Counted from the first letter of the stretch, positions 13,643 to 35,971 are shown. The stretch is 64,000 nucleotides of DNA from Candidatus Nezhaarchaeales archaeon (GCA_038887515.1 JAWAKK010000001.1:224001-288000), one strand, 5' to 3'. Numbers and translations are program-made. The notes: a model not told the origin generated them from the sequence alone.

Positions 13643-14695
13643 GTGATTCCTATGAATTTAAGGTATGTGGCTATAATATTAGTAGCTGTTATAGTGGTTG
13701 AGGCTTTAGCAATCGGTTACATGGCCCTTAACAATAACCAGCTTAGTGAAACACTTTCACAGCTTCAAAGCGAATATCGGAAGCTTCAAAGCGAATACCA
13801 AGCCCTCGTAGGCGAGTACAGGCAGTTCACGACTGCTATATACCCCCTGACGTTGATTGACGATGCGAATAGAGTCATAACAATAAGTTCAGAACCTCTC
13901 AGAATAGTATCTTTAGCTCCTTCTATAACCGAAATTCTCTTCACTTTAAACTTGAGCGATAGGGTCCTCGGGGTAACAATGTTCTGCGACTATCCTCCAA
14001 TAGTTAACGAAATGAAGGAGAAAGGAAGATTAACAGTTATAGGCGGCTACTGGGATCCTGATGCCGAGAAGATAATAGGACTACGACCAGATCTCGTGAT
14101 AGGTTACGCATCAGTCTCACCACACGTCGACCTCGCTGAGAGGCTAACAGCTTTAAACATAACCGTTATGCTCTTGTACCCGCATAATTTGCACGAAGTC
14201 TTCAACAACATAATCTTAATAGGGAAAGCTACTGGGAAACTCGTGGAAGCACAGAAGCTAGTTCAACAGCTTGAAGCTAGGGTCAATAGCACCATCGAAA
14301 AGATCAAGAACTTACCTAAGATCAAGGTATACTACGAAATATGGTTTGACCCGATATGGACTACAGGCCCTGGCACTTTCATAGACGAGCTCATATCGTT
14401 AGCCGGAGGTATAAACGTGTTTGGCGACGCTAAGACCATGGGGGTTGTAGTTAGTTATGAGGACGTAGTAAACAGGAACCCGGACGTAATTGTGCTTCCC
14501 GATACTTACATGAAGGAGTTCAGCATCTCAAAGGAACAAGTGATCTCAAGACCTGGGTGGTCTGCGATAAATGCCGTCAAGAACGACAGGATATACTTCA
14601 TAGATGAAGACATAGTAGTGAGACCTGGACCTCGATTAGTTGAAGGTCTAGAGGTTTTGGCGAGGTTAATACATCCAGAGGCGTTTGGTGGTTGA
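13643..14695 (+). CDS. btuF: Cobalamin/Fe-siderophore ABC transporter substrate-binding protein (BtuF-like)
   Basis: N-terminal TM helix plus coiled coil, then RIVSLAPSITEILF, CDYPP, TFIDELISLAGG and RPGPRLVEGLE. Confidence 0.88.
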   Translation: MIPMNLRYVAIILVAVIVVEALAIGYMALNNNQLSETLSQLQSEYRKLQSEYQALVGEYRQFTTAIYPLTLIDDANRVITISSEPLRIVSLAPSITEILFTLNLSDRVLGVTMFCDYPPIVNEMKEKGRLTVIGGYWDPDAEKIIGLRPDLVIGYASVSPHVDLAERLTALNITVMLLYPHNLHEVFNNIILIGKATGKLVEAQKLVQQLEARVNSTIEKIKNLPKIKVYYEIWFDPIWTTGPGTFIDELISLAGGINVFGDAKTMGVVVSYEDVVNRNPDVIVLPDTYMKEFSISKEQVISRPGWSAINAVKNDRIYFIDEDIVVRPGPRLVEGLEVLARLIHPEAFGG

Positions 14696-15741
14696 CGCTA
14701 GAACACATAGAGGCTAGGAGACGTAGATGGAAGCTATACATGACGTCATTAGGAGTACTACTACTAACTACATTTTTTTCCATATGCATAGGTTCATCGC
14801 TTATACCATTTGAGGAAACGTTAAAGGTGTTTTTTAAATGGCTCTTGCCGTCTATGAATGTAGACCCGCTATACGAACAGATAATTTGGACCATCAGGTT
14901 ACCGAGGGTACTGATGGGCTGCATGGTTGGAGCAGCTTTATCGCTCGCAGGCGCACTACTTCAAGGTATATTTAGGAATCCTATGGCCGACCCCTATGTT
15001 ATAGGGGTCTCGTCGGGTGCTGCTTTAGGTGCATCTATAGCTATAGTGCTAGGCTTCGGCTTCACAATCTTTGGTTCAGCTGCCATATCATCTATGGCCT
15101 TCATATTCGCCATGACATCATTGATCATAGTTTATAGCTTGAGCCGCGTAGGCGGTAAGGTCCCAGTAATGACCTTACTCTTATCCGGTATAGCTGTCGG
15201 CATACTTTTTTCGGCAATAACATCCTTCCTCTCGCTGTTTGTAGGCGAGAAGCTAGCTAACGTTTACTTTTGGTTGCTTGGCAACTTGTCTAAGTCTGAG
15301 TGGAACCACGTAGTAGTTTCGGCGCCGGTGTTGATATCATGTAGCGTAGTTGCAATGCTTTACGCTAGAGACCTAAATTTAATGTCTATGGGCGAAGATA
15401 CCGCCATAAGCCTCGGTATAGACGTCGAAAACACTAAACTTGTACTAATAACAATTAGTTCCCTCATGACTTCAATAGCCGTCTCCTTCACTGGGATGAT
15501 AGCTTTCGTAGGTCTCATGGTTCCCCACATAGTAAGACTCATAGTAGGTCCGGATCATAGAGTCCTGCTTCCTTGCTCGACGCTCTTTGGGGCCCTCTTC
15601 TTAATTGTATGCGATGACATGGCAAGGGCATTTGCTTTAATTACTTCAACTCAAATACCTGTAGGCATAATAACAGCCTTGGCTGGAGGTCCCTTCTTCA
15701 TATACCTCTTAAGGCGCAGGAAGAAGGAATATTCCCTTTAA
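14692..15741 (+). CDS. btuC: FecCD/BtuC family ABC permease
   Basis: IRLPRV, QGIFRNPMADPYVIGVSSGA, GMIAFVGLMVPHIVR and PVGIITALAGGPFF motifs. Confidence 0.92.
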   Translation: MTLEHIEARRRRWKLYMTSLGVLLLTTFFSICIGSSLIPFEETLKVFFKWLLPSMNVDPLYEQIIWTIRLPRVLMGCMVGAALSLAGALLQGIFRNPMADPYVIGVSSGAALGASIAIVLGFGFTIFGSAAISSMAFIFAMTSLIIVYSLSRVGGKVPVMTLLLSGIAVGILFSAITSFLSLFVGEKLANVYFWLLGNLSKSEWNHVVVSAPVLISCSVVAMLYARDLNLMSMGEDTAISLGIDVENTKLVLITISSLMTSIAVSFTGMIAFVGLMVPHIVRLIVGPDHRVLLPCSTLFGALFLIVCDDMARAFALITSTQIPVGIITALAGGPFFIYLLRRRKKEYSL

Positions 15742-15818
15742 GAGCTCTATGATTGTTGACTAAGCAACGCAAATTCAATAATAGATTTGACGAATTAGAA
15801 TTTGTGACCCTCAAAGTC

Positions 15819-16262
15819 TTAATGACTTTGACCCTCTAATAACTTCTCAAGTCCTCCTCTCTCCACATAGTCCTTAAGCTCAGTTAAGCTCCTTAACACA
15901 ACGTCTGAGTGTAGTGTTATCCAGGGACTTGGATTATCGAACTCTATTATTGAAATTACTTTCTTGCCCTTCAGTTTAGCATAGAACAATTCCATACAGG
16001 CTCCAGCCGAAATCTTAGGCAGATAGGCTATCAAGACATCACACCTCTCAACATCCCTTAAATCTCTATCTATGAAGTCTCTAGGTTGAGCCTTCTTCCA
16101 CCATTCTCCTTCAATAGCTCTATAAATTACTCTTTCCCTTTCCCACGGATCTATAACTTCGTAACCTCTGGCTTCGAGGATCCTTCTTATCTTGGCTCTA
16201 TACTCTTGCCTATCTTCCATGCCCTGTATAGGTCCAGCCACGAAGACTCTAATCATAATCAT
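15819..16262 (-). CDS. Nucleoside 2-deoxyribosyltransferase-like protein
   Basis: VFVAGPI, RDLRDVERCDVLIAY and SAGACMELFYA motifs. Confidence 0.8.
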   Translation of the reverse strand: MIMIRVFVAGPIQGMEDRQEYRAKIRRILEARGYEVIDPWERERVIYRAIEGEWWKKAQPRDFIDRDLRDVERCDVLIAYLPKISAGACMELFYAKLKGKKVISIIEFDNPSPWITLHSDVVLRSLTELKDYVERGGLEKLLEGQSH

Positions 16263-16374: not shown

Positions 16375-17277
16375 TTAGAAGCGCGATATTTTAAATCTCG
16401 GGTGAGTTGATGGCGGACGTTTTCCATCTTCCATCAGTACTTGACCATAGGCTGCGCTTATAATAGCTATCGCGGGAACAATGAATTCTGCTTCGTGTAT
16501 AGGACCGAAGAACACGAAGTCCCCTCCAATGGCTATTGGCAACCCACTTACGATTGCGGAGCAGGCAGCTGTTAGAGCTATGTTCTTTTTCTGTTTGAGA
16601 GACCTCCACAGTGCAATAGCGTTGTGAGCTCCACAGCCACAAGGATAACCGTAGCGGCTCTTAATTTCGTAAATCGCTTTACAAGCTAGCCCGAGCGTTG
16701 CAAGGTCCATCACTACCGTGTCTATCATTATCTTCTCTATCCCAAAGCTCTTCATTTTAGGGATTAAAACGTCGAGTAGCCTTATCCTCTCTTTGTAAGA
16801 TATTATAGCCTTAGAACTGTAGGTAAGTGCGACCGCCGCTTTAAGCCCAACTTCTTTGGCTTTTTGATATACGTGCTCTTTAGTCTCGGGGTTAAAGGAG
16901 TTTAGAAGCGTTCTATCTAGTATTCCAAGTTCTTTAGCGGTTTGTAGACCACTGATAGCAGCTTCATCGGTTACGTAGTCTATCAGTATTGGTATCTTAG
17001 TTGCATCGGCGGCGAACTCTATGCGTCTCTTTGCGTTTTCAGCGTTAGTACAAACTACGTCAAGCATGCATGGAAGTCCAACCTTATCACATACCTCTTG
17101 GTATTTTGCAATTAAGTCTTGCGCGGCTTCCTTATCTATATTGCCGCTCTCGTCCGAAGTTTTATCGTCTTTAAAGAATATACTGCCTATGACCACTGTG
17201 GGGTACTCTCCAGGCTGTCCACCAACTTTGACACCTGCAATGTCAAAGGTCAATTGGTCCTTCTCAAACTTAAACAC
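16375..17277 (-). CDS. mtrH: Stand-alone MtrH-family corrinoid:tetrahydropterin methyltransferase (MtoA/MtgA-like)
   Basis: MFKFEKDQ...GVKVGGQPGEYPTVVIGSIF, GYPCGCGAHNA and GGDFVFFGPI motifs; no other mtr subunits nearby. Confidence 0.9.
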   Translation of the reverse strand: MFKFEKDQLTFDIAGVKVGGQPGEYPTVVIGSIFFKDDKTSDESGNIDKEAAQDLIAKYQEVCDKVGLPCMLDVVCTNAENAKRRIEFAADATKIPILIDYVTDEAAISGLQTAKELGILDRTLLNSFNPETKEHVYQKAKEVGLKAAVALTYSSKAIISYKERIRLLDVLIPKMKSFGIEKIMIDTVVMDLATLGLACKAIYEIKSRYGYPCGCGAHNAIALWRSLKQKKNIALTAACSAIVSGLPIAIGGDFVFFGPIHEAEFIVPAIAIISAAYGQVLMEDGKRPPSTHPRFKISRF

Positions 17278-17417
17278 AGCACTTAACCCCCAATGTATAT
17301 AACGGAGAGAGTTGCTTCGGCTCGCTTAAAAAGCCTTTCTATAAGCGTAGGGAGGATGAACTCGATGTTAAGCATATTAAGGGCTCAGCATCTTTACATA
17401 ACTCCAGTTGACCATAT

Positions 17418-19331
17418 ATGACGTTAGAACACAAAACCTCTAAAAAAGTAATGGTCCGCTTTGAACCTCAAGGAAGGAAGGTATCAGTAGAGCAGGGGTT
17501 AACAATTTTAGAAGTTGCGCAGAAAGCTGGTGTTGGAATTAGGAGTGAGTGTGGTGGCCGAGGACTATGTGGGAAGTGTTTAGTTGTAGTTGAAGATCAA
17601 TCAAACTTGAACCCGATATCAATTATTGAACTGCAACAAGTACCTAGAGACAAACTTAAGCTAGGATACAGGCTTGCATGTCAAAGCATTGTCAAAGGCG
17701 ATGTAATGATATTCATCCCACCAGAAAGTAGAATGGAAACAAGGAGAATATTAAGTGAGGGGGCTGAAGAGACCTTCATGCTGGATCCGTCAGTCAAGAA
17801 AATTTACCTATCGTTGCCAAAGCCTAGCCTACAGGACGTTACTCCCGACCTAGAAAGACTTTGTTATCTATTGAGTGAAATGGGAATAGTTGGTGTTGAT
17901 ATAGATCATAAACTAATACAGGCGTTGCCATTGATCTTGAGGCAAGCCGACTGGAAGGTTACAATTACCCTATGGATGGATAAAGAAATAATAGCTATAG
18001 AGGAGGGAAATAAGACCAGCGAAATATACGGCATCTCTGTAGATATAGGCACGTCAAAGATTGTCTTACACTTAGTGAATCTTGCTTCTGGTGAAACTAC
18101 CTCCGTAAAATCTATGGAGAATCCGCAAATAGCCTACGGAGAGGACGTCATCTCGAGGATAAGCTATGCCTCCTTCAATGAGGGAGGGTTGAGAAGGTTG
18201 CAAGAAATCGTAGTTGAAGCCATAAATTCGCTCATAGAAGAAGCGTGCCGAGAAGCCGGCGTAAAGAAAGATAACATATATGAGATAACGGTCGTAGGAA
18301 ACACGGCAATGCACCACATCTTCTTGGGGTACTCACCGAAACAGCTCGCTATCGCGCCATACGTCCCAGTTGTTAAGCGGCCGATAAATGTGAAGGCCGA
18401 GTGCCTGAACCTCAAGGTAAACCCGCTGGCCAACGTCCACGTGCTTCCAATTATAGCTGGTTTCGTGGGCGCTGACGCAGTTGCAGATGTTTTGGCTACG
18501 AGAATTTATGAACTCGATGAAATAAGCTTGCTAATAGACATTGGGACTAACAGTGAAGTCTTCGTAGGTAATAGGGAGGATATAATTTCATGCTCATGCG
18601 CTGCCGGCCCAGCATTCGAAGGGATGCACATAGAGCACGGTATGAAGGCGGTGACGGGAGCTATCGAGAAGGTTAGGATAGACCCTAAAGACTATGAGGT
18701 GGACTATGAAACTATCAATAGTGCTAAGCCTATAGGGATTTGTGGCTCAGCGATAATAGATGCCATTGCCGAGATGTTTAAGTGCGGGATAATAGATAGC
18801 CGCGGACGCTTCAAACGAGACGTCCAATCAAAGCGCTTACGTAGCGAGAATGGTAGGCTAAAATTTGTGATAGCTTGGAGGGAGGAGACCGGAACTGGCC
18901 ACGATATAACCATTAGCGAGAGGGATATACAAGAAATCATATTAGCGAAGGCGGCAATACGTACTGGTATATCGATACTAATGAAGGAGAAGAATTTGAA
19001 GGAAAAGGACTTAGATCGCATATACGTTGCCGGAGCCTTTGGAAACTACTTAAACCCTGAAAGCGCGTTATTCGTAGGCTTATTCCCCGATGTCGACTTA
19101 AGCAAGATAAGATTCGTCGGCAACGCAGCAATAACTGGAGCAAAGCTTTGTCTACTTTCAAAGAATATGAGGAAAAGCGCTGAATACCTTTCAAACACCA
19201 TCCGCTACGTCGAGCTAACGATACATCCGGACTTTCATAGAGAATTCGTCGAGGCCCTTTTCATTCCACATCGAGATATAAACAGGTACCCGACCGTAGC
19301 GAGGTATTTGGGCAAAAAATTAACCACCTAG
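17418..19331 (+). CDS. ATP-dependent reductive activator of corrinoid proteins (RACo/RamA-like, ASKHA, N-terminal 2Fe-2S)
   Basis: CGGRGLCGKC...RLACQ, DIGTS, NPQ..YGEDVISRI, IDIGTNSE, AAGPAFEG, GICGS and AGAFGNY motifs. Confidence 0.95.
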   Translation: MTLEHKTSKKVMVRFEPQGRKVSVEQGLTILEVAQKAGVGIRSECGGRGLCGKCLVVVEDQSNLNPISIIELQQVPRDKLKLGYRLACQSIVKGDVMIFIPPESRMETRRILSEGAEETFMLDPSVKKIYLSLPKPSLQDVTPDLERLCYLLSEMGIVGVDIDHKLIQALPLILRQADWKVTITLWMDKEIIAIEEGNKTSEIYGISVDIGTSKIVLHLVNLASGETTSVKSMENPQIAYGEDVISRISYASFNEGGLRRLQEIVVEAINSLIEEACREAGVKKDNIYEITVVGNTAMHHIFLGYSPKQLAIAPYVPVVKRPINVKAECLNLKVNPLANVHVLPIIAGFVGADAVADVLATRIYELDEISLLIDIGTNSEVFVGNREDIISCSCAAGPAFEGMHIEHGMKAVTGAIEKVRIDPKDYEVDYETINSAKPIGICGSAIIDAIAEMFKCGIIDSRGRFKRDVQSKRLRSENGRLKFVIAWREETGTGHDITISERDIQEIILAKAAIRTGISILMKEKNLKEKDLDRIYVAGAFGNYLNPESALFVGLFPDVDLSKIRFVGNAAITGAKLCLLSKNMRKSAEYLSNTIRYVELTIHPDFHREFVEALFIPHRDINRYPTVARYLGKKLTT

Positions 19332-19566: not shown

Positions 19567-20232
19567 ATGTGTCCTACTATCGAAAATGAACTAAAAGAAT
19601 TATTGAAAGCAATAGTGGATCTCGAAGAGGGCAGGGCTATCGAAATAACGAAGAGGCTCGTAGAGTCCGGTGTAGACCCAGTAAGGATACTGGATTGCGT
19701 TCGAGAAGCATCTGAAGAGATAGGGAAGAGATTTGAAAGCGGAGAGTACTTCGTGGCCGACTTAGTGATGGCAGGAGAGATATTGAAAGGAATAAGTGAA
19801 ATAGTGAGACCTAAGCTCAAAGAGTTTGGGAAGTCCAGAGAAGTAATAGGTAGACTATTAATAGGAACTGTTGAGGGAGACATACATGACATAGGTAAGA
19901 AGATCGTTATAACGATGGCTGAAGCCGCTGGGTTCGAAGTCCTCGATATAGGGGAAGATGTGCCCCCACAGAAGTTTGTTGAAGCGATAAAGGAGTTCAA
20001 CCCCGACATAGTTGGAATGTCCGGTTTACTTACGCTAGTAATAGACTCAATGAAGAGGACAGTCGACGCAATAAAGGCTGCAGGTCTTAGAGACAAGGTG
20101 AAAATAATAATCGGAGGTGGAAGGGTGGACGAGCATGCCAAGGAATACACCGGCGCAGATGCTTGGACAAACGATGCTGCGTCGGGAGTAAGAACGATGG
20201 TGAAATGGATGGAGGAGAGGAAAAGGAAATGA
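19567..20232 (+). CDS. Corrinoid (B12-binding) methyl-carrier protein (MtaC/MtoC-like)
   Basis: GTVEGDIHDIGK (DxHxxG), GMSGLL and IIGGG motifs; GGAGG SD upstream. Confidence 0.95.
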   Translation: MCPTIENELKELLKAIVDLEEGRAIEITKRLVESGVDPVRILDCVREASEEIGKRFESGEYFVADLVMAGEILKGISEIVRPKLKEFGKSREVIGRLLIGTVEGDIHDIGKKIVITMAEAAGFEVLDIGEDVPPQKFVEAIKEFNPDIVGMSGLLTLVIDSMKRTVDAIKAAGLRDKVKIIIGGGRVDEHAKEYTGADAWTNDAASGVRTMVKWMEERKRK

Positions 20233-21497
20233 TTAAGGAACCCATAGACGAAATGAGAGAGAGACAGAAGAAAGAGCCCGAAGAGGTCCTGAAAGAGAGG
20301 GCCACAATATTTGAAGCAGCGGTAGATCTTAAAGAGCCCGAAAGAGTTCCATTGCTACTACTTTCATGTGGTCACCTGCTCGGTAAGTATTACAAATTAA
20401 GCGAGATATTCTTCAACTACGATACATTAAAGAAGGCTTCACTAAAAGTCATCGAAAACTTCCCAGCAGACTTATTTGCACCGGTACCTGCCGCCGATGG
20501 CTTCATATTTTCAGTAGCCTTCGCAGATTACCCCGATCTCTCACCCGTAGTCCGCTTCATAGCGGGACCTATACACGACATTTTGGGTGATAAATACACT
20601 CGATGGCCTGGAAGGGAGCTTAGCGAGAACACTACTTTTCAGTTTATAGGTGGAAAGTTCATGGAGGTCGAAGAGTACGACAAGCTTATTGAAGACCCAA
20701 TAGGTTTCATAAATGAGGTAGTGGTGCCTAGAGTTTGCACAAACCTAGCTAAACCAGGTATATCTAGGTACGCGACGTATGCTAGACTCGGCATAGCTGG
20801 TCGAGACTTCCTATTTAACGGTATGATAGGGACAAGCATCGAGCTAACTAAGGTCGGCATACCACCAATTCCGCTTACGTCTGCTTATGCCCCGCTAGAC
20901 GTCATAAGTGACTTTATGAGGTATCCAACTAATATGATGCTCGACTTACGTAGGTACCCTGATAAAGTTAAGAGTGCTACCGAGGTGCTGGTTGAGCCAA
21001 TAATCAAGATAGCGATGGCACTTAAGCCAGCAGGAGCGAAATTTGCTTTCATTCCGCTACATTTAAATGAGATGCTTCCTCCAAAGCTTTACAACGAGTT
21101 CTACTGGCCCTACTTAAAGGAAGTAATAGTGAGACTTTACCAAAACGGTATAAGGTCATACATTCTTTTTGAAGGGAACCACATGCCCCACTTAGAGACG
21201 ATACTTGAGTTACCTAAAGGATGGGGTCTCGGGGTCTTTGAAAAAGGCGATATAAAGAAGATTAGAGAAACCTTAAAGGGACATACTTGCGTTGCCGGAG
21301 GCATCCCCATATCGTTGCTCCTGCAAGCCACTCCGGACAAAATAGATAGTTACGTCAAAGAATTGCTTGCAGACCTAGCTCCAGGTGGAGGCTTCATACT
21401 TGGGCCAGGTATAGGCGAAATACCAGCCGAAGTACCGGATGCCAATTTAAGGGCACTGGTCAACGCAGCACTAAAGTATGGTAGATATAAGAGGTAA
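20229..21497 (+). CDS. UroD-family substrate:corrinoid methyltransferase (aryl O-demethylase MtoB/MtvB/OdmB-like)
   Basis: ATGA overlap with the corrinoid gene. KEPERVP, FMEVEEYDKLIEDP, PLDVISDFMR, FIPLH, FYWPYLKE, LELPKG and APGGGFIL motifs. Confidence 0.8.
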   Translation: MIKEPIDEMRERQKKEPEEVLKERATIFEAAVDLKEPERVPLLLLSCGHLLGKYYKLSEIFFNYDTLKKASLKVIENFPADLFAPVPAADGFIFSVAFADYPDLSPVVRFIAGPIHDILGDKYTRWPGRELSENTTFQFIGGKFMEVEEYDKLIEDPIGFINEVVVPRVCTNLAKPGISRYATYARLGIAGRDFLFNGMIGTSIELTKVGIPPIPLTSAYAPLDVISDFMRYPTNMMLDLRRYPDKVKSATEVLVEPIIKIAMALKPAGAKFAFIPLHLNEMLPPKLYNEFYWPYLKEVIVRLYQNGIRSYILFEGNHMPHLETILELPKGWGLGVFEKGDIKKIRETLKGHTCVAGGIPISLLLQATPDKIDSYVKELLADLAPGGGFILGPGIGEIPAEVPDANLRALVNAALKYGRYKR

Positions 21498-23627: not shown

Positions 23628-23637
23628 AGATTAGGAC

Positions 23638-23769
23638 ATGATGGGGTTGGTGTACATGATATATTGGGAATGGTTGCTTGGATGGGAAGGCCTAGCCTTC
23701 TACGTACTGATAATATTGTGCATCATAGGGGCATTGGCCTTAAGAAAAGGCAAGAAGCGAGGAGGATGA
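23638..23769 (+). CDS. Unannotated small membrane protein (type A) upstream of symporter 1
   Basis: MMGLVYMIYWEWLLGWEGLAFYVLIILCIIGALALRKGKKRGG*: one TM helix and a basic tail. It ends in GGAGGA-TGA just before the symporter start and is homologous to 34334-34474. The start could be 23656. Confidence 0.8.
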   Translation: MMGLVYMIYWEWLLGWEGLAFYVLIILCIIGALALRKGKKRGG

Positions 23770-26509: not shown

Positions 26510-26518
26510 GTGATATGA

Positions 26519-27226: not shown

Positions 27227-27227
27227 C

Positions 27228-28112
27228 ATGTCTGTTCCTGGACTTACAGACTTATTAAGCATAGGAAACATAGTAGTCAACGGCTTGCTCCTTGGCGGTC
27301 TATTCGCATTAATAGCGTTTGGATTATCGGTATTCGTGGGAGTCATGAGGGTTATAAACATAGCTCACGGAGACTTTGCAATTTTATCAGCATACTTTGC
27401 GCTATCAATAATGTTATTCCTAAGAGTTGATCCTTTCATAAGCTTAATAGCCGTTGTACCGATAATGTTCGTGGTGGGCTACGCCTTTCAAAGGTTCATA
27501 ATAAATAGGCTACTCCCCATGGGAGCTAACCAACCTGTCATAGCGACTTTTGCACTAAGCATCGTAATACAAAATCTATTACTCTTGACTTTCACAGCGG
27601 ACGCCCGAAGCCTGATAGTTCCCTACTTACTAGAGCCCCTAGAATTCTTTGGAATAAGCATTTCACGACGCTACGGGGTGAGCTTCCTTACTGCCCTTAT
27701 AATGTTCGTGGCTATATACTTCTTCCTTAAGAAGACTTATACCGGCAAGGCTATGCGAGCGGTGCCATTTGATATCGAAGCTGCGAAAATGCTTGGAATA
27801 AGGCCCTTCTCGATCTATAATTTTGCGGCAGGCTTCGCTATGATTGCGGTAGCTGTTGCAGGCGTGCTGTTAGGTATGGTTTTCACATTTTACCCCGATA
27901 CGGGCCCGATGTTCCTATTATTGTCTTTCGGAGCCGTAGTGGTCGGGGGCGTTGGAAGCCTAAAGGGAACTCTCATAGGAGGCATAATAATGGGCGAAGC
28001 ACTGGTCCTGGGAGGATACTTGGGTTCACACTACCAGTTAATGTTTTGCTACCTAGTAATATTAGCAATCCTAATAGCAAGACCTCAAGGAATCTTCGGG
28101 GAGAGGTTCTAA
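27228..28112 (+). CDS. livH: Liv-type ABC permease
   Basis: NGLLLG..FALIA.GL, INIAHG, GKAMRA and RPQGIFG motifs. Confidence 0.92.
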   Translation: MSVPGLTDLLSIGNIVVNGLLLGGLFALIAFGLSVFVGVMRVINIAHGDFAILSAYFALSIMLFLRVDPFISLIAVVPIMFVVGYAFQRFIINRLLPMGANQPVIATFALSIVIQNLLLLTFTADARSLIVPYLLEPLEFFGISISRRYGVSFLTALIMFVAIYFFLKKTYTGKAMRAVPFDIEAAKMLGIRPFSIYNFAAGFAMIAVAVAGVLLGMVFTFYPDTGPMFLLLSFGAVVVGGVGSLKGTLIGGIIMGEALVLGGYLGSHYQLMFCYLVILAILIARPQGIFGERF

Positions 28113-28113
28113 G

Positions 28114-29064
28114 ATGTCCATACTAAAATTTGAGCTTAAACGAAACTATGTTTACATAGTAGTCGTAATAGCAATACTTGCATCCCTACCTATGTGGGTA
28201 GGCGGCTTTTTGAGAGATGCATTGATACTCTTCTTCTTATACCTTGCTGCTGCTGAGGTCTGGGGCTTTATGGCTAAGCACGCCGGCATGGTTTCTCTAG
28301 GTCAACAAATTTTCATAGGAATTGGAGGCTATATGACTGCGGTCCTATGTATGTATGAGGGCCTGCCGTTGTGGGCTAGTGTTATAGTCGCCGCCTTAAT
28401 AGGGAGTGGATTGGCAGCAGCCCTCTCCTTTCCGTTGTTAAGGTTGCGCGGCATTTACTTCTCGATAGGCTCCTTCCTTACAGCTGAAATTATTAAGTTA
28501 ATCTTCAATAGCTGGGAGTACGTTGGCGCCGGTAAGGGGCTAATATTTGTCGGAGCCTACGGTATACCCACGACAGTAATCTACTACCCTGCCATGGTTA
28601 TCGGTCTGTCCTCTATGTTCTTAATATATTACTTGTACCATTCAAAGCTAGGCTTCGGCCTTAGAAGCATAGGAGCTGATGAAGATGCTGCCGCTAGCCT
28701 TGGCGTTGACACATTTAGATGTAAAGCTCTCCTCTTCGTCTTTTCCGGCTTCATTACAAGCTTAGTGGGAGCAATAAATGCAATCCACCATACCTATCTA
28801 CATCCAACTTCAGCATTCAACATACTTTGGACGGTAAGCTTCCTATTCGTAGCGGTCCTGGGAGGACTTGGAACGATAATTGGGCCAGTTATCGGAAGCG
28901 CTATCTTTACGGCTTTAACATACTTGTTCTCTATGTACATTGGGCTAAGCCTGCTACTAGAGGGATTGGTCGTACTCGTTATATTACTGGTAGTTCCAGG
29001 AGGAATTTGGGGCTCCATAGCAAAGAAGTTGAGATACAAGATAAAACTAAAAGAACCCCTCTAA
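28114..29064 (+). CDS. livM: Liv-type ABC permease
   Basis: GMVSLGQ, LRLRGIYFSI, DEDAAASLGVD, LGGLGTIIGP and PGGIWG motifs. Confidence 0.92.
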   Translation: MSILKFELKRNYVYIVVVIAILASLPMWVGGFLRDALILFFLYLAAAEVWGFMAKHAGMVSLGQQIFIGIGGYMTAVLCMYEGLPLWASVIVAALIGSGLAAALSFPLLRLRGIYFSIGSFLTAEIIKLIFNSWEYVGAGKGLIFVGAYGIPTTVIYYPAMVIGLSSMFLIYYLYHSKLGFGLRSIGADEDAAASLGVDTFRCKALLFVFSGFITSLVGAINAIHHTYLHPTSAFNILWTVSFLFVAVLGGLGTIIGPVIGSAIFTALTYLFSMYIGLSLLLEGLVVLVILLVVPGGIWGSIAKKLRYKIKLKEPL

Positions 29065-29136
29065 TGGTTCATAATTGAAGGAGCTCGATGATTACCCGGT
29101 AATAAAACTTTTATTCTTTTTCATTACTATATTCTA

Positions 29137-30507
29137 TTGATTCTTATGAAGAAGACGTATGCTGCAATCATTGCTATAGTGGTCGTTGTCGTCGTTATTG
29201 TTGCGGGCGTTGCCGCCTACTTCTTAACCCTACCTCCACCAGGTCCAGCTGCCCCCGAGTACATAAAGATCGGCTGGCCAGTCCCATTAACTGGGGGCAT
29301 AGCAGCCTTCGGAGAGCCAGATCCTTGGATTGCTAGACAAATCGAGGATTACGTTAACAACGTTATGGGCGGCGTTTACTTAGCTGAGTACGGTAAGAAG
29401 GTCCCGATAAAGATCATTATGAGGGATACTAAGAGCGATCCTAATACTGCTGCTTCAGTTGCTGCTGAGCTAATAACTAGAGAGAACGTAGACTTAATGG
29501 TAGTCCTACACACGCCCGGAACAGTTAACCCGGTAACGGGGCAATGTGAGAGGTACGGGGTACCATGCATAGCTCTCGATTGTCCCGTGCTCTCATGGCT
29601 TGAAGGTGCTCCTTACAGGTGGTCGTACTTAGCGTTCTGGACTGAAGTCGACGTAGCCCACGTTTTTGTGGGGATATGGGACTCCTTGGGAGACAAGACT
29701 AACAAAGTTGTTGCAGGTCTATGGAGCGATGATCCTGACGGCAGGACGTTCCGAGAACTAACAGTTAAGCTGGCAAGGACACGGGGATATAGAGTTATAG
29801 ACTCCGGCTTAGTGCCCTACGGCACCTCCGATTTCAGCACATACATTGAAGAGTGGAAGAGAGCTGGAGCAGAAATACTTACTGGGAACTTTATTCCACC
29901 AGACTTTGCTACTCTCTGGAGGCAATGCCGTGAGCGCAGCTTTGTACCTAAAGTCGCTACAATAGGAAGGTCAGTTCTCTTCCCAGCTCAAGTAGAGGCC
30001 CTAGGAGGCGACTTAGGGGTCGGCCTGACAACTGAAGTATGGGTGCACGTGGTTTCTCCATTCCATTCATCGCTGACTGGCCAGACTCCAAGAGACCTAG
30101 CTGAAGCATACGAAAAAGCTTCGGGCAAACAGTGGAGTACGCCGTTAATATTCTCGCACGCGGCTTTCGAGCTAGTGGTCGACGTTCTTAAGAGGGCTGG
30201 TAGCTTGGATAAGGAGAAGGTTAGGGTGGCTATTGCGAATACTGACTTGGATACCATTGTTGGTCACATAAACTACAAGAAGCCGTTAAAGGAGATACTT
30301 AGCCCCGAAGAGTATGCAATCTACCAAGAATATCCGAAGTTGGTACAATACCAAGACCACTACTCCATAACTCCAGTCATCGGCGGACAGTGGGTTAGAG
30401 GGACGAAGTGGCCGTTCGAGCTCGAAGTAATCTACAACTGGAAGTACGGCAACATACCAGAAACAGCACCAGTAAGGCTTATACCCGAACTTCTCGGCAG
30501 AACATAA
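29137..30507 (+). CDS. ABC transporter substrate-binding protein (LivJ/K-like PBP1 family; aromatic ligand plausible)
   Basis: N-terminal TM anchor, IKIGWPVPLTG..AAFG, RDTKSDPN and LDTIVG motifs. Confidence 0.88.
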   Translation: MILMKKTYAAIIAIVVVVVVIVAGVAAYFLTLPPPGPAAPEYIKIGWPVPLTGGIAAFGEPDPWIARQIEDYVNNVMGGVYLAEYGKKVPIKIIMRDTKSDPNTAASVAAELITRENVDLMVVLHTPGTVNPVTGQCERYGVPCIALDCPVLSWLEGAPYRWSYLAFWTEVDVAHVFVGIWDSLGDKTNKVVAGLWSDDPDGRTFRELTVKLARTRGYRVIDSGLVPYGTSDFSTYIEEWKRAGAEILTGNFIPPDFATLWRQCRERSFVPKVATIGRSVLFPAQVEALGGDLGVGLTTEVWVHVVSPFHSSLTGQTPRDLAEAYEKASGKQWSTPLIFSHAAFELVVDVLKRAGSLDKEKVRVAIANTDLDTIVGHINYKKPLKEILSPEEYAIYQEYPKLVQYQDHYSITPVIGGQWVRGTKWPFELEVIYNWKYGNIPETAPVRLIPELLGRT

Positions 30508-30679
30508 ATCTTCAGAAACTTCATACTATTTTTTTGTGTAAAGTCTTAGAGAGAAGAAAATTTTCTTCTCTTTTTTTTAAATTTTATCCATGAAATTTAA
30601 TCATGCTACTTCTTTTTTTCACTACTTATTGAGAGGTGCAAACCTTAAATACTCACTTCATGTCCCTTACCTATTTATT

Positions 30680-33316
30680 GTGGGAACCTTGCCTGAACCT
30701 GAGACCGGTTTTGGTATATTATTGCCTGACGGTACTAGGCGATGCACTGGCTGTACTGTCGGCGGACCAGTGTTCGCCTACGTCAAAGACGGAAAGATAA
30801 CTAGGGTGACGCCAATCGAATTCGGGCCAGACGATGCTGAAAGCTGGGAAATAGAGGCTAGAGGGAGAGTCTTTAGACCTCCTCGAAAGGCACTTGTAGC
30901 GCCATACGTCTTGTCTGTTAGGAGCAGAATTTACTCGCCCGAAAGGCTACTGACGCCCATGAAGAGGATTGACTTTGATCCTGACGCTCCACCTGACAAG
31001 AGAAAGCAAGAAAACAGGGGGAAGTCGGGTTACGAACCTATAACTTGGGAAGAAGCTCTAGAGATAGTTGCCAACGAGATAGAGAGGGTTAGGAGGCAGT
31101 ACGGACCTGAAGCGATTGCCGCTACAGCAGATTCTCACTACGAGTGGGGCAACATACACTATAGGCATAGCACTCGCTTTAGGTTCTTCAACTTACTTGG
31201 TTTCACTTACGTAGATCATAACCCTGATAGCTGGGAGGGATGGCATTGGGGAGCAATGCACATGTGGGGCTTCAGCTGGAGGTTGGGTATCCCCGAACAG
31301 TACGATCTATTGTGGGACGCATTAAACCACTGCGACATGATCGTGTTCTGGAGTGCAGACCCGGATACGAATAGAGCTATAGGCTATCAAGGATATGAGT
31401 CAGCCCCCTGGAGGCTTTGGCTTAAGGAGCTCGGAGTCAAGGTCGTGGCTGTAGATCCGTTCTACAATTGGACAGCCCACATTATGTGGGCCGACAAGTG
31501 GTTTGCCCCTAGACCCGGTACCGATACTGCGCTGGCGGCAGCAATAGCCTATGTATGGATAACGGAGGATAGATACGACAAGAAGTTCGTTGAGACTAAA
31601 TGTTATGGATTTGACGAATTCAAGAAGTACATCCTCGGAGAAGCCGATCATACACCTAAGACCCCCAAGTGGGCTGAAGAACTGACCGGAATACCGGCTC
31701 GAGAAATAGTGGCGCTTGCTAGAGAGTGGGCTTCGAAGAGGACGATGCTAGCCGCTGGAGGTCTAGGTGGTTGGGGCGGAGCGTGTAGGAGTGCATATGG
31801 TCATGAGTGGGCCAGGTTCATGGTTGCTCTTGCCGCAATGCAAGGCATCGGAAAGCCGGGAGTCAACATTTGGGGTACTACGCAAGGCGCCCCCGTTGAC
31901 TGCACGTTCTTCTTCCCAGGATACGCTGAAGGTGGTATCTCGGGAGACCCCGTGAAGAGCGCTGCCTTCAAGAACCTATTAGCTCGCGGAATGACTAAGA
32001 TACCCACTTATTGTACGATACACGACAACAACCACATAGCTAGGTTACTACTACCCGAATGCATAACGTATCCACCAGAGAAGTACGTTACTTGGAGGGG
32101 GAGAGGCTTCTGTGGAGAGTCTCTACAGCATCAGTTTAGGCCGTATAGATATCCAGCCCCTGGCTATAACCCCATGAAGATGCTTTACAGGATAGGTGCT
32201 GGCTACATAGGTACGATGACCCACACAAACAGGTGGGTAAGGGCCTATAGGAGCCCGAAGTTAGAGTTCTTCGTCGTACAAACAATATTTGCTAATGAAC
32301 CTGAGTGCAAGTTTGCGGACGTTTTGTTACCAGTCTGTACGAACTTTGAACGTTGGGATATAAGTGAGTGGGCAAGCTGCTCTGGTTACATACCGCATTC
32401 ATTCACTGGCGTCAACCATAGAACCATAGTACTACACATGAAGTGTATAGAACCTCTAGGACAGTCTAGAAGCGACTATTGGATATTTGAGCAGCTAGCA
32501 AAGAAGCTCGGCTTCTGGTACGAGTTCACGGAAGGAGGTATGACAGACCTAGATTGGGTCAAGAGGATGTTTGAGGTAAGCGACTTACCAAAGTACATAA
32601 CTTGGGAAGAGTTCAAGAAGAAGGGCTACTTCGTAGTACCACCGCCAAAGCCCTACAAGCCTACGCCTGCCCTAAGGTGGTTCTACGAGGATAGAGAAAG
32701 GGACACACCCGACTGGGCTCCGCCATACCCGAAGAAGGGCCTTGCCACGCCAACCGGTAAAATAGAGTTCTACTCCAAGACTATAGAGAAGTTCAAGCAG
32801 GATGATCCGGAAGAAGAGAGACCGATCATACCCATGTACATACCTTCGTGGGAGGGTCATACGAGTGAGATGGCCAAGAAGTACCCGCTACAACTCGTAA
32901 CACCTCACCCGAGGTACTCTTACCACACGCACCACGATGGTAAGGGTACGTGGATAAACGAGATTCCAGAGCATAGAATAAAGAAGGAGGATGGAAGGTA
33001 CTACTGGGTGCTATATATCAATCCAAAGGATGCAGAGGCTAGAGGCATAAAACACGGCGATATAGTCAGAGTCTTTAACGATAGAGGCTCAGTGCTATGT
33101 GTAGCCTTCGTCACAGAGAGAGTGAGACCGGGGGTTGTAAGGGCTTGGGAATCCTGCAATGTTTATGATCCAATAGGTGAACCTGGCGATCCCAAGAGCG
33201 TAGATAGAGGAGGTTGCTTGAACCTCATTACTCCAGAGAAGTTCCTATCAAAGAACGCCTGCGGTATGGCTCCAAACTCATGCCTAGTCGAAGTTGAGAA
33301 GTGGAAGGGGGTGTAG
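30680..33316 (+). CDS. athL: Molybdopterin oxidoreductase, pyrogallol-phloroglucinol transhydroxylase large subunit homolog
   Basis: Long motifs matching Pelobacter acidigallici AthL as I recall it: GGPVF.YVKDGKI, HNPDSWEGWHWG.MHMWGFSWRLG.PEQYDLL, AAGGLGGWGGACR, FPGYAEGGISGD, CTNFERWDISE.A.CSGYIP and DRGGC.N..TP. No Tat signal. The start is likely GTG 30680 or TTG 30689, not 30590. Confidence 0.9.
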   Translation: MGTLPEPETGFGILLPDGTRRCTGCTVGGPVFAYVKDGKITRVTPIEFGPDDAESWEIEARGRVFRPPRKALVAPYVLSVRSRIYSPERLLTPMKRIDFDPDAPPDKRKQENRGKSGYEPITWEEALEIVANEIERVRRQYGPEAIAATADSHYEWGNIHYRHSTRFRFFNLLGFTYVDHNPDSWEGWHWGAMHMWGFSWRLGIPEQYDLLWDALNHCDMIVFWSADPDTNRAIGYQGYESAPWRLWLKELGVKVVAVDPFYNWTAHIMWADKWFAPRPGTDTALAAAIAYVWITEDRYDKKFVETKCYGFDEFKKYILGEADHTPKTPKWAEELTGIPAREIVALAREWASKRTMLAAGGLGGWGGACRSAYGHEWARFMVALAAMQGIGKPGVNIWGTTQGAPVDCTFFFPGYAEGGISGDPVKSAAFKNLLARGMTKIPTYCTIHDNNHIARLLLPECITYPPEKYVTWRGRGFCGESLQHQFRPYRYPAPGYNPMKMLYRIGAGYIGTMTHTNRWVRAYRSPKLEFFVVQTIFANEPECKFADVLLPVCTNFERWDISEWASCSGYIPHSFTGVNHRTIVLHMKCIEPLGQSRSDYWIFEQLAKKLGFWYEFTEGGMTDLDWVKRMFEVSDLPKYITWEEFKKKGYFVVPPPKPYKPTPALRWFYEDRERDTPDWAPPYPKKGLATPTGKIEFYSKTIEKFKQDDPEEERPIIPMYIPSWEGHTSEMAKKYPLQLVTPHPRYSYHTHHDGKGTWINEIPEHRIKKEDGRYYWVLYINPKDAEARGIKHGDIVRVFNDRGSVLCVAFVTERVRPGVVRAWESCNVYDPIGEPGDPKSVDRGGCLNLITPEKFLSKNACGMAPNSCLVEVEKWKGV

Positions 33317-33319
33317 GAT

Positions 33320-34162
33320 ATGGTTAGGTACGCAATAGTCGTAGACATAACTAAATGCAATGGTTGCTACAACTGTTTCTTAGCTTGTAAAGACGAGTTT
33401 TGGGATAACGATTGGCTACCGTACTCCGTTGGACAGCCTAGACATGGACATCAATGGATTAGGCTACTGTATAAGGAGAGAGGAAACTATCCACATGTCA
33501 GGATCACGTATGTTCCAATGCTGTGTTTCCACTGCGAAAATCCAAACTGCATAAAGGCGGCTAAAGAAGGCGCCGTATACAAGAGACCAGACGGAATAGT
33601 AATAATAGACCCAGTAAAGGCCAAGGGACAGAGACAACTTGTCGAAGCTTGTCCCTATGGAAACATTTTCTGGAACGAAGAGAAAAACGTACCTCAAAAA
33701 TGTACCATGTGCATACACTTACTAGAACAGGGATGGAAAGAACCTCGCTGTGTACAAGCATGCCCAACAGGAGCTTTAAAGTTTGGTGATCTAGATGATC
33801 CGAAGAGTGAAGTTTACGGAATGGTAAAGTCCGGGCGTGCGATACCATTTAAGCCCGAAGCGGGACTGAGGTCAGGAGTATTCTACGTGGGTCTCCACCG
33901 ATACGCAAAGGAGTTGCTGGCTGGAAGTGTCGCACTTAAAGGTAGTGACGAGGTTGCTAAAGGCGCGAAGGTAATGCTAGTAAATAAGAAGACAGGCGAG
34001 AAGCTGGTCACAGAGACAAACGAGTTTGGATTATTCGAGTTCGACGGCCTTGAGTTAGGGCAATACACGTTGACCATAGAGTATCCAGGCTACAAGACCA
34101 AGGCCCTCGACATAGTTCTCTCGAAGAGCTTATATATGGGTTACATTGAGCTAGAAAGATAA
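33320..34162 (+). CDS. bthL: Transhydroxylase small Fe-S subunit homolog (3x[4Fe-4S] plus C-terminal fibronectin-like domain)
   Basis: CNGCYNCFLACKDE, ERGNYP, CFHCENPNC, CPYG and KCTMC motifs; the C-terminal ETNEFGLFEFDGL..G.YT extension is characteristic of BthL. Confidence 0.9.
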   Translation: MVRYAIVVDITKCNGCYNCFLACKDEFWDNDWLPYSVGQPRHGHQWIRLLYKERGNYPHVRITYVPMLCFHCENPNCIKAAKEGAVYKRPDGIVIIDPVKAKGQRQLVEACPYGNIFWNEEKNVPQKCTMCIHLLEQGWKEPRCVQACPTGALKFGDLDDPKSEVYGMVKSGRAIPFKPEAGLRSGVFYVGLHRYAKELLAGSVALKGSDEVAKGAKVMLVNKKTGEKLVTETNEFGLFEFDGLELGQYTLTIEYPGYKTKALDIVLSKSLYMGYIELER

Positions 34163-34196
34163 TTAATTTTACAAGAAAAGTGAAGGGGTAATTGAC

Positions 34197-34334
34197 ATGT
34201 TAATCCCCATAGAACAAATCCCCATAGAAGCCCTGCCAGTAAGACTATTTGTTGAAGCGTGGATAGCAATGATAATCACGAACATATGGTTCTACATAGG
34301 CTACAAGATCGCTCAGAGTAGAAAGAAGGAGTGA
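34197..34334 (+). CDS. Unannotated small membrane protein (type B) upstream of symporter 2
   Basis: MLIPIEQIPIEALPVRLFVEAWIAMIITNIWFYIGYKIAQSRKKE*; GAAGGGG SD; homolog at 25416-25544. Confidence 0.82.
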   Translation: MLIPIEQIPIEALPVRLFVEAWIAMIITNIWFYIGYKIAQSRKKE

Positions 34335-34474
34335 TGGCCATGGAGCTCAATGTAGATTGGCTAACTACATGGGAGGGCTTCTGGTTCTACATTTTCATAA
34401 TATTTTTAATACTGTTCTACGGCGGCGTAAGGAAAAGCAAGAAAACTTCGGAGTCAGCCACTAAAAGTGGGTGA
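34334..34474 (+). CDS. Unannotated small membrane protein (type A) upstream of symporter 2
   Basis: MAMELNVDWLTTWEGFWFYIFIIFLILFYGGVRKSKKTSESATKSG*; TGATG overlap with the previous peptide; homolog at 23638-23769. Confidence 0.82.
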   Translation: MAMELNVDWLTTWEGFWFYIFIIFLILFYGGVRKSKKTSESATKSG

Positions 34475-34480
34475 TATGAC

Positions 34481-35971
34481 ATGGCGCTTAGGATGGAGAT
34501 ATTACTTCCAGTAGTGATATACTACTTGGTAGTCACCATTGGTGTTGGGACCTACTTCATAAGGAAATACGGTAGGGCGGCGAGAGACTTTACGGTTGCA
34601 GCGATGTCATTGCCGTGGTGGCTAGTAGCTATGGGCATAGTATTGGGGCCTTTCGGTGCCGGACATACATTGAGCCCGGCCGAAGCATCATGGAGATGGG
34701 GCGCTACGCCGAACTGGTGGTCAATAGTAGGTGGTACCCTATCACTAACTATAGCGATATTCACTATCGGTAGGTGGTACAGGAGGCTTGGAGCTTCAAC
34801 AATAGCTGAAGCCTACGAGAAGGTTTTCAGCCCAGGAGTAAGAGCGCTTGCGTCAGCTACAACTCTCTTGGCATCTCTAGCTATAGGTAGTCTAGAGTTT
34901 TATGCAAGCGCTGCAGCTATCTCGGGCTTTACCGGACTAGACATAGGGTTCTGCCTCATATTCTCCTTCGTGTTCTTCATAATATACGTGTTGTTCTCGG
35001 GAGTAATGCAGCTAGCCGTCGTCAACTTAATAAACATAATAGTGTACTACGTTGGCGTGGTACTAGCGCTCGTAGTTCTAACTTCAATTGTCGGACAAAT
35101 AGGTGGTTGGAAGGTCGCTGAACAATTAATAGTTCAGAAAGTGGGTACAAAGGGAGTTACATTATTTGCTCCTGAGCTCGGACCATTCCTCGGCTTAGTG
35201 CTCCCAATAGCAATACTTCATGCATGTTATACGCCACTAGTCCAAGGGTTCATGCAACCAGTGCTAGCTGCAAAGGATGAGAAGCAGATAACGAAGGGGT
35301 GGCCCCTAGTGCTAGTGTTGAACGCAAGTGCTACGACGGCATTCGTGGTCATAGGTTTGGCGTCGTTTACTCTGCCGTCGACGCTTTACGGTCCACTAGC
35401 TCCTACCATAGAAGCGCTTAGAGCCCAAGGTGCAGGCGTGCCAGCCATAATACTTACCATAACGGAACTACTTCCTGGTGCAGGTGCGCTAATCTTGATG
35501 TCGTTGTTAGCTGCCACGTTATCCACGGGTGGTGCTTTCGTACTAGGTTCTTCAACTGCAATAGTCGAAGACCTTATATCAATGTACAAGAAGTTCGACG
35601 AGAGAGTAAGACTGATACTGCTACGTGTATTCATTATCGTCGCATGTATACTATGTCTCGTTGGAGCAATGTTCATGCCATACCTGATAGCTGCCTTCTT
35701 ATGGGTATTCGGATGGACTGTGCCCTTCTTCGTTGGTTTAGTGTTTGCATGGTTATGGCGCAGAAGCACTAAGGCAATGCTTGGAACGGTAGCGATCACG
35801 TGGATCGTGCACGTGCTATGGACTATATTCGGAGTCAATGTACCCTTTGAGTGGCTAAAGCCTCCTCTAGGCAACACCTATCCGCTAATCATAATAGCCA
35901 TAATAGTATACGTGGTACTGGCCTTAGCATCCAAGGATAGCAAAGAACCCGGTAAGTTGCTGACAAAATAA
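34481..35971 (+). CDS. Sodium:solute symporter (SSS) family protein 2, paralog of symporter 1
   Basis: DFTVAAMSLPWWL, PFGAGHTLSPAEA, QPVLAAKD and LLAATLSTGGAF; many motifs shared with 23774-25315. Confidence 0.92.
   Translation: MALRMEILLPVVIYYLVVTIGVGTYFIRKYGRAARDFTVAAMSLPWWLVAMGIVLGPFGAGHTLSPAEASWRWGATPNWWSIVGGTLSLTIAIFTIGRWYRRLGASTIAEAYEKVFSPGVRALASATTLLASLAIGSLEFYASAAAISGFTGLDIGFCLIFSFVFFIIYVLFSGVMQLAVVNLINIIVYYVGVVLALVVLTSIVGQIGGWKVAEQLIVQKVGTKGVTLFAPELGPFLGLVLPIAILHACYTPLVQGFMQPVLAAKDEKQITKGWPLVLVLNASATTAFVVIGLASFTLPSTLYGPLAPTIEALRAQGAGVPAIILTITELLPGAGALILMSLLAATLSTGGAFVLGSSTAIVEDLISMYKKFDERVRLILLRVFIIVACILCLVGAMFMPYLIAAFLWVFGWTVPFFVGLVFAWLWRRSTKAMLGTVAITWIVHVLWTIFGVNVPFEWLKPPLGNTYPLIIIAIIVYVVLALASKDSKEPGKLLTK

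Follow-up and report, generated by a model that had tools for sequence, protein, structure and literature searches.

Candidate genes for aryl O-demethylation and pyrogallol transhydroxylation in one island of a Nezhaarchaeales archaeon

Ring-cleaving methoxydotrophic bacteria, namely Sporobacter species (cited in PMC8359953) and Holophaga foetida, first O-demethylate a methoxylated aromatic compound and then ferment its ring. These bacteria use tetrahydrofolate. In archaea, the MtoABCD systems of Methermicoccus shengliensis and Archaeoglobus fulgidus combine a UroD-type MtoB, a corrinoid protein MtoC, an MtrH-type MtoA and a RACo-type MtoD with archaeal tetrahydromethanopterin (H4MPT) C1 genes (PMC8630106, PMC8359953); these systems are flanked by transporters of the major facilitator superfamily (MFS), and the organisms described release the hydroxylated ring. 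According to the published accounts, Methermicoccus, Archaeoglobus and Bathyarchaeum take the methyl groups only and leave the ring (PMC8630106, PMC8359953, PMC10477458). Homologues of mto have already been reported in a metagenome-assembled genome (MAG) of Nezhaarchaeota (PMC8359953). For the trihydroxylated ring, the closest described enzymes are the transhydroxylase AthL/BthL of Pelobacter acidigallici (PDB 4V4C) and the products of the PGR, DPGC, TfD and TAL cluster of Clostridium scatologenes (PMC10470551). The latter work noted phloroglucinol clusters bioinformatically in Archaeoglobus, and a survey of the transhydroxylase family gives, in its available text, 0 archaeal sequences among 285 RhL/PgtL matches (PMC10100899). 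Here, we describe a gene island at positions 13643-35971 of a 64,000-nucleotide stretch of DNA, hereafter the window, from a Candidatus Nezhaarchaeales archaeon (GCA_038887515.1, JAWAKK010000001.1:224001-288000), in which candidates for an aryl O-demethylase and for a pyrogallol-phloroglucinol transhydroxylase lie side by side. The island resembles the MtoABCD systems in all four components and in the archaeal H4MPT C1 genes of its host; it differs in being flanked by transporters of the sodium:solute symporter (SSS) and Liv types and in having ring-processing genes next door and elsewhere in the genome. The logic would be that of the ring-cleaving methoxydotrophic bacteria, in an archaeal, H4MPT-linked and high-temperature version.

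The transhydroxylase candidate consists of AthL (30590..33316, plus strand), a large subunit of the molybdenum-bis(molybdopterin guanine dinucleotide) type (Pfam AhtL-like_1st, E 1.6e-24), and BthL (33320..34162, plus strand), an iron-sulfur small subunit with a C-terminal CarboxypepD_reg-like domain (Pfam Fer4_11 and CarboxypepD_reg). Residues 51-907 of AthL align to residues 6-869 of the 875 residues of the P. acidigallici large subunit 4v4c_A with 1074 bits, identical at well over half of the positions as judged by eye, and residues 2-278 of BthL match 4v4c_B with an E-value of 6.5e-67. The annotated N-terminus of AthL carries about 45 extra residues without a twin-arginine motif; the start is probably annotated about 45 codons too early. 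The pair shares with its P. acidigallici counterpart the two subunits, the serine ligand and substrate residues, the iron-sulfur part and C-terminal beta-sandwich of the small subunit, and the lack of an export signal. Unlike that enzyme, it belongs to a thermophilic archaeon and is surrounded by Liv and SSS importers and a corrinoid O-demethylase candidate. Six residues, H144, R153, D174, S175, Y404 and Y560, we take from the structure work of Messerschmidt et al. 2004 to be the molybdenum ligand and the substrate and cosubstrate residues, a numbering that fits the 4v4c_A alignment. All six are kept in the window protein as H183, R192, D213, S214 (the serine being the molybdenum ligand), Y445 and Y600. 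For comparison, 26 AthL-family sequences including that of the window were aligned. The 13 sequences with at least 45% identity (window included) keep the pattern H, R/K, D, S, W, Y, Y, with K for R in three of them, and each of the 13 paralogues with at most 40% identity has lost R192 and shows a gap at Y600, four also having lost Y445. By this split, the window protein is a full-motif AthL and not a divergent paralogue. With the alignment and the active site pointing the same way, we consider it highly probable that 30590-34162 encodes an AthL/BthL pyrogallol-phloroglucinol transhydroxylase. Some proteins of Bathyarchaeota and Nezhaarchaeales are already labelled pyrogallol hydroxytransferase in public annotation. 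AthL-family paralogues, 36-40% identical, with R192 replaced and a gap at Y600, were found at loci L014-L023 of related genomes (G186, G179, G356, G302, G362, G288, G045 and G254), some of them with a BthL-like partner of their own.

The families of the published phloroglucinol route (PMC10470551) were searched for in the window's own genome (G000), as the initial annotation had proposed for the later steps, and a cluster of an SDR, a cyclase, a cupin, CoA-transferase genes, a BKACE and a 3-hydroxyacyl-CoA dehydrogenase (3HCDH) was found. It lies at about 576-582.5 kb of contig C1 (L005 10040-16548), about 320 kb from the island, with the genes for the Cyclase-family protein, the short-chain dehydrogenase/reductase (SDR) and the cupin on one strand and those for the CoA-transferase (CoA_trans, subunits A and B), the BKACE-family protein and the 3HCDH on the other. 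The genome has one Cyclase gene and one BKACE gene, and these are 4 kb apart; the only NCBIfam match of the Cyclase protein is the arylformamidase model with 59 bits (cut-off 223). The SDR, the 'cyclase', the 3HCDH, the BKACE and the CoA-transferase correspond to the content of the C. scatologenes cluster (PMC10470551). In contrast to that cluster, the archaeal one has an additional conserved cupin, its BKACE and SDR stay under the curated equivalog cut-offs, and the BKACE-3HCDH pair of the closest genus-mate occurs without the remaining cluster.

A link between these families and AthL was seen in other genomes. The neighbourhood survey comprised 78 loci from other genomes, which were fetched with the AthL query and searched within 10 kb for homologues with an E-value of at most 1e-10 over at least half of the query. 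Ring-cluster homologues were seen near AthL at 34 of these loci; by family, the counts are 22 for the cyclase, 21 for the SDR, 18 for the cupin, 12 for BKACE and 11 for 3HCDH. In one Bathyarchaeia record (L036), AthL, BthL, 3HCDH, BKACE, cupin and SDR follow each other in a row and are 56-66% identical to the proteins of the window's genome.

The cupin is a protein of 118 amino acids (L005:11931-12287, i.e., G000:C1 ~577.9-578.3 kb) encoded inside the phloroglucinol-type cluster. Its homologues near AthL, found in 18 of the 78 loci and 36-62% identical, come from Bathyarchaeia, Dehalococcoidia, Desulfobacteraceae and Holophagae records, and four of these 18 loci have no cyclase within reach. 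A PDB search with the cupin returned nothing informative, and the published pathway, as far as its available text goes, mentions no cupin (PMC10470551). The protein may be an unrecognised component of the phloroglucinol route.

A UbiD/LpdC-type gallate decarboxylase had likewise been suggested as a target for a genome search, and an AroY-like UbiD was indeed found outside the window. The genome has two UbiD genes. The first was set aside as a mevalonate/isoprenoid enzyme beside aconitase-X-type (DUF521/DUF126) genes. The second (G000:C2 ~185.5-186.9 kb, with an MFS transporter nearby) is like the AroY/LpdC-type prenyl-FMN decarboxylases in matching protocatechuate decarboxylase AroY (PDB 5o3m) with 304 bits and unlike them in missing the cut-off of VdcC, its best NCBIfam model (260 bits, cut-off 650). 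It is a candidate gallate decarboxylase by similarity, gallate being the substrate that we infer.

The demethylase module of the island, at 16375-21497, contains all four Mto-type parts together, as recognised by the Pfam families URO-D, B12-binding plus B12-binding_2, MtrH, and RACo plus Fer2. On the minus strand, an MtoA-like methyltransferase 2 of the MtrH family is encoded at 16375..17277 (Pfam MtrH, E 1.7e-61). The plus strand carries an MtoD-like RACo activase with an N-terminal 2Fe-2S domain at 17418..19331 (Pfam RACo_C_ter, Raco_middle, RACo_linker and Fer2; NCBIfam AcsV 565 bits, cut-off 800), an MtoC-like corrinoid protein at 19567..20232 (Pfam B12-binding and B12-binding_2; all NCBIfam corrinoid-protein models under cut-off) and an MtoB-like methyltransferase 1 of the UroD superfamily at 20205..21497 (Pfam URO-D, E 3.2e-22). 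The open reading frame (ORF) of the last extends over 20163-21497; the database form P0121 has 430 amino acids, and the start is therefore probably at 20205, in which case the gene overlaps the end of the MtoC gene by 28 nucleotides. The best PDB matches of methyltransferase 2 are MtrH (8z9u_B, 214 bits) and a methylcorrinoid:tetrahydrofolate methyltransferase (6sj8, 171 bits); this protein would move the methyl group from the corrinoid to a pterin, probably H4MPT. For methyltransferase 1, no Pfam match to the MttB, MtmB or MtaB families was obtained, and the MtaA/CmuA models of NCBIfam reached 33-52 bits at cut-offs of 235-244. On the strength of this gene set, 16375-21497 likely encodes an aryl O-demethylase. 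A second MtrH-family gene exists at G000:C1:115816-116700, with a Pfam score of 419 bits compared to 208 for the window copy, and may belong to another methyltransferase system.

Methyl groups taken up by such a system can, by gene content, enter H4MPT C1 metabolism. At 94% completeness, the genome amounts to 1.29 Mb on 9 contigs, and the window is embedded in a contig of 776 kb, a context that rules out mis-binning. Reverse gyrase is present, with nearest named homologues at 76-78% identity in Candidatus Nezhaarchaeota or Nezhaarchaeales. Mch and CdhC, a subunit of CO dehydrogenase/acetyl-CoA synthase (CODH/ACS), were found in the genome, and MTHFR, FTHFS and McrA were not found at this completeness. 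Together, these observations suggest an archaeal thermophile that is not a methanogen and whose C1 branch is of the H4MPT type, which agrees with the earlier suggestion that the methyl groups are fed into pterin C1 metabolism.

From these parts, the following route can be proposed. Module 1 would consist of a candidate corrinoid importer and the four-part Mto-type O-demethylase. MtoB would transfer the methyl group of an aryl methyl ether to the Co(I) corrinoid of MtoC, the MtrH-like MtoA would pass it from the corrinoid to tetrahydromethanopterin, and the RACo-type MtoD would re-reduce corrinoid that has become oxidised. Module 2 would comprise a CocE-like esterase, two paralogous symporters, a Liv-type ABC importer and a cytoplasmic AthL/BthL isomerising pyrogallol to phloroglucinol. 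The AroY/LpdC-like UbiD encoded outside the window would convert gallate to pyrogallol, and the products of the distant cluster would reduce phloroglucinol, open the ring and cleave the C6 keto-acid into units of acetyl-CoA. Complete degradation to acetyl-CoA would then be possible for compounds of the syringate, trimethoxybenzoate or galloyl type, the methyl groups going to the H4MPT branch and CODH/ACS. On balance, we think it rather probable that the organism runs such an integrated methoxy and ring pathway. The sequences themselves show the gene families, an AthL active site that is conserved, candidates for all steps within a single genome and, in other genomes, ring genes that are repeatedly linked to AthL; the substrates, the action of both modules on one substrate series and joint expression of the genes are what we infer.

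Several observations weigh against this integrated pathway. The initial annotation had looked to synteny in related MAGs, and there the adjacency of demethylase and transhydroxylase did not recur: MtoA and MtoC are near AthL in 0 of the 78 loci, MtoB (29% identity) and RACo in one each, and genus-mates lack one part or the other. The phylum sample consisted of 401 genomes, of which 11 have an AthL-like protein at E ≤ 1e-100 and 19 an MtoB at E ≤ 1e-60. G179, G045 and G197 have both a full-motif AthL and MtoB, on different contigs; the genus-mates G186 and G254 have AthL, and MtoB was not found in them with the window query. Of the 401 phylum genomes, 5 have a cyclase homologue (E ≤ 1e-40); none of the 9 other members of the family does, and among the 6 genomes with a full-motif AthL it was seen in G000 alone. 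The BKACE is under both curated cut-offs that apply, with 257 bits compared to 382 for the lysine-fermentation enzyme Kce and 213 compared to 430 for the 3,5-dioxohexanoate:acetyl-CoA enzyme. The BKACE-3HCDH pair is also present in G186 (93% and 81% identical); there it is flanked by saccharopine-dehydrogenase-like genes and lacks a nearby SDR, cupin or CoA-transferase gene, and its ancestral role may be a different one. As for the SDR, little sets it apart, its nearest solved relative being gluconate 5-dehydrogenase; PDB 5g4k and 5g4l, which we take to be phloroglucinol reductase although the entries are not labelled so, gave a low match of 133 bits and were not used. Finally, the nearest solved relative of the MtoB-like protein is CdmB, which is not an O-demethylase (PMC13222342).

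The most serious alternative reads the island as two unrelated modules that happen to be neighbours: the Mto genes would harvest methyl groups, the ring being exported as in Archaeoglobus fulgidus, and the esterase, the Liv importer and AthL would handle gallate or pyrogallol derived from tannin. The missing adjacency in the 78 loci and the separate contigs in the three genomes just named agree with this. Further, the two modules differ in their affinities. In an AthL tree (FastTree, 47 sequences) with its root placed on the paralogues, the window AthL and a sequence 85% identical to it fall together within a Bathyarchaeia-labelled clade (support 1.0); a separate clade, likewise with support 1.0, unites G186, G179 and a Nezhaarchaeales-labelled protein. 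Among the best 120 of the 413 homologues of methyltransferase 1, the best named matches are labelled Desulfurococcaceae or Thermoprotei, and no Methermicoccus or Arch­aeoglobus record occurs. On a metagenome contig (L125, 16000 bases), a CocE 81% identical to that of the window is flanked by two sets of Liv genes; both contig ends hold AthL fragments, and Mto genes are absent. The cultured methoxydotrophic archaea, as reported, leave the ring untouched (PMC8359953, PMC10477458). Against a mere neighbourhood stands the genome G045 from another family of the phylum, in which an AroY-like UbiD (65% identical), a cupin (64% identical), an SDR and a Liv-type binding protein are all encoded no more than 7 kb from MtoC-MtoB; judged by its genes, this locus is an independent link of demethylation to ring processing. 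In addition, among the 6 genomes whose AthL has the full motif, 4 also have MtoB, compared to 19 of 401 overall, a difference that is overstated because related genomes are not independent. Within the island itself, 14 large genes, from that of the RACo activase to that of symporter 2, are on the same strand and paralogous symporters occur in both modules. We regard two unconnected modules as unlikely.

The island looks assembled by gene transfer, as the window AthL groups with Bathyarchaeia-labelled sequences and the host is Nezhaarchaeota-like. G186 shares the order leu-his-BthL-AthL with the window; its housekeeping genes are 71-88% identical to those of the window (one small ORF 58%), compared to 63% for AthL and 55% for BthL, and no Liv, SSS, CocE, Mto or Btu-like gene was found within 20 kb of its AthL locus. 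From the gene arrangement, the island looks like two accreted modules, a Bathyarchaeia-type esterase-Liv-AthL module, at a site where the genus already keeps an AthL, and an Mto module.

A second alternative concerns the substrate of module 1. If the UroD-type methyltransferase took its methyl group from a non-aromatic compound, for instance chloromethane or a different haloalkane, the module would serve C1 harvesting unrelated to lignin monomers. The only PDB match of methyltransferase 1 at E ≤ 0.01 is CdmB (9rui, E 2.8e-58) of the CdmBCA system of Acetobacterium dehalogenans, a chloromethane enzyme that belongs to the O-demethylase branch of the UroD superfamily and yet does not convert methoxylated aromatics; archaeal CdmB homologues have been reported (PMC13222342). 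A grouping of methyltransferase 1 with methylamine, methanol or thiol enzymes, which had been named as speaking against an O-demethylase, was not seen; this sole solved relative falls in the O-demethylase branch. The identity to CdmB is about 33% (hand count, 132 identities in ~400 aligned columns), which is under the level of 40% for CdmB-like proteins and near the 31% between CdmB and archaeal MtoB (PMC13222342). The CdmBCA system follows the same three-component corrinoid logic (PDB 9RUI; PMC13222342); the methyltransferase 2 of the island is of the MtrH type as in Mto and not of the CdmA type, CdmA being nearest to MtqA and modelled on PDB 4O1E (PMC13222342), and the island's neighbours point to aromatic catabolism, a context found in two archaeal genomes. 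Gene architecture and context, as distinct from a tree, suggest that methyltransferase 1 belongs to the MtoB clade, and a non-aromatic donor is very improbable. Least credible of all is that AthL/BthL is another phenol-transforming member of its family, such as a resorcinol hydroxylase or hydroxyl-transferase that does not form phloroglucinol: although the family includes other substrates, e.g., that of the resorcinol hydroxylase RhL (PMC10100899), paralogues at 34-40% identity occur in related archaea and at other loci, and genus-mates with AthL lack the cyclase homologue, the near end-to-end alignment to the P. acidigallici enzyme, the six active-site residues, two of which every paralogue has lost, and the phloroglucinol-pathway families near this AthL clade speak against it.

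All gene families listed in the initial annotation for 13643-35971 were recovered at their positions with the ORF map, Pfam and NCBIfam. The plus-strand array from 17418 to 35971 is unbroken, with a widest intergenic gap of 447 nucleotides, and runs from the RACo activase over the corrinoid protein, the URO-D methyltransferase, CocE/NonD, an SSS protein, LivGFHM with the binding protein, AthL and BthL to the second SSS protein. The alpha/beta hydrolase of the CocE/NonD family (21717..23627, plus strand) is above the cut-off of the NCBIfam model CocE_NonD (214 bits, cut-off 66), and its best PDB matches are cocaine esterases; by similarity, it is a candidate aromatic-ester hydrolase. An Atlas search with this protein gave nothing informative. 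The metagenome contig L125, which independently ties a CocE gene to Liv genes and AthL, also holds a second CocE-like hydrolase, 32% identical to that of the window, and BthL was not found after the first AthL fragment on this contig.

The two sodium:solute symporters (Pfam SSF, 23774..25315 and 34481..35971, both plus strand) are paralogues with 46% identity, and each module has one of them. Symporter 1 is immediately preceded by a hydrophobic ORF of 43 amino acids (23638..23769, plus strand) and symporter 2 by one of 47 amino acids (34331..34474, plus strand), either of which may encode a small subunit. Both ORFs have a similar W..WEG..FY...II core and a lysine-rich tail, which suggests two-subunit symporters made of a small hydrophobic protein and an SSS protein. 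Between the symporters, ABC ATPases and permeases of the LivG, LivF, LivH and LivM types are encoded at 25763..29064 (plus strand; Pfam ABC_tran, BCA_ABC_TP_C and BPD_transp_2), followed by a Liv-type substrate-binding protein at 29137..30507 (plus strand; Pfam Peripla_BP_6, E 8.9e-40). In the neighbourhood survey, LivG homologues adjoin AthL in 21 of the 78 loci and homologues of the Liv-type binding protein in 13; an SSS homologue, 27-28% identical to symporter 1 and 30% to symporter 2, does so in three.

At the other end of the island, a BtuF-like periplasmic-type substrate-binding protein (13643..14695, plus strand; Pfam Peripla_BP_2, E 1.3e-35) and a BtuC/FecCD-type ABC permease (14692..15741, plus strand; Pfam FecCD, E 7e-98) are encoded. 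Of the B12 uptake assigned here originally, the binding protein and the FecCD permease stand; both proteins are under the NCBIfam cut-offs (BtuF 91 bits, cut-off 234; BtuC 339 bits, cut-off 461), there is no adjacent ATPase gene, and no tRNA or Rfam family was found in the window, so that a cobalamin riboswitch is missing as well. A corrinoid is our best guess for the substrate of the importer at 13643-15741, going by these similarities. A nucleoside 2-deoxyribosyltransferase-like protein (15819..16262, minus strand; Pfam Nuc_deoxyrib_tr, E 8.8e-11; no NCBIfam match) is encoded between the permease and methyltransferase 2.

The flanks of the island are housekeeping genes, namely reverse gyrase, pterin and methanofuran-type biosynthesis genes, and the his and leu operons. 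Directly upstream, at 8736-12993, GlcD/GlcF-like genes of the kind known from lactate or glycolate oxidoreductases are located, two with FAD_binding_4 and one of the CCG/Fe-S type. The space between island and his operon holds a serine hydroxymethyltransferase gene (37530-38825) that is absent from the matching gap of G186; this gene may tie the island to C1 metabolism. Repeats in the window are short and at chance level. A 13-nucleotide motif common to two intergenic regions was rejected as not significant (4 matches compared to a shuffle mean of 1.66; 5 of 100 shuffles reach 4). The G+C content over AthL is slightly elevated (0.47-0.49 compared to 0.43-0.46), which is not decisive.

The literature was searched for an archaeon to which this route has been assigned, and none was found, the supplementary tables of PMC10470551, PMC8359953 and PMC13222342 lying outside the scope of the search; within that scope, the original statement that the combination is not described in archaea survives. 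Judged by the genes, a route for syringate- or trimethoxybenzoate-type compounds in an archaeon, built from enzyme kinds all known in bacteria, is plausible, and it is apparently unpublished. A more specific reading is put forward tentatively, as possible and somewhat short of probable: this hyperthermophile would be the first archaeon equipped for both the methoxy and the ring carbon of syringate- or trimethoxybenzoate-type lignin and tannin monomers, combining H4MPT-linked O-demethylation, prenyl-FMN decarboxylation, molybdenum transhydroxylation and the phloroglucinol route. The capability would be a recent product of gene transfer, in which a Bathyarchaeia-type AthL-Liv-esterase module entered the locus that in genus-mates holds their own AthL, and the cupin would be an unrecognised member of the route. 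The finding bears on whether archaea help to turn over the aromatic carbon of lignin and tannin anaerobically, especially in the hot subsurface or in springs. The genome offers a concrete set of about 30 genes, including candidates for a thermostable transhydroxylase and O-demethylase, and corrects the zero count of archaeal members of the transhydroxylase family given in the available text of the survey (PMC10100899). It would also be an example of how gene transfer from one archaeal class to another can build up such a pathway.

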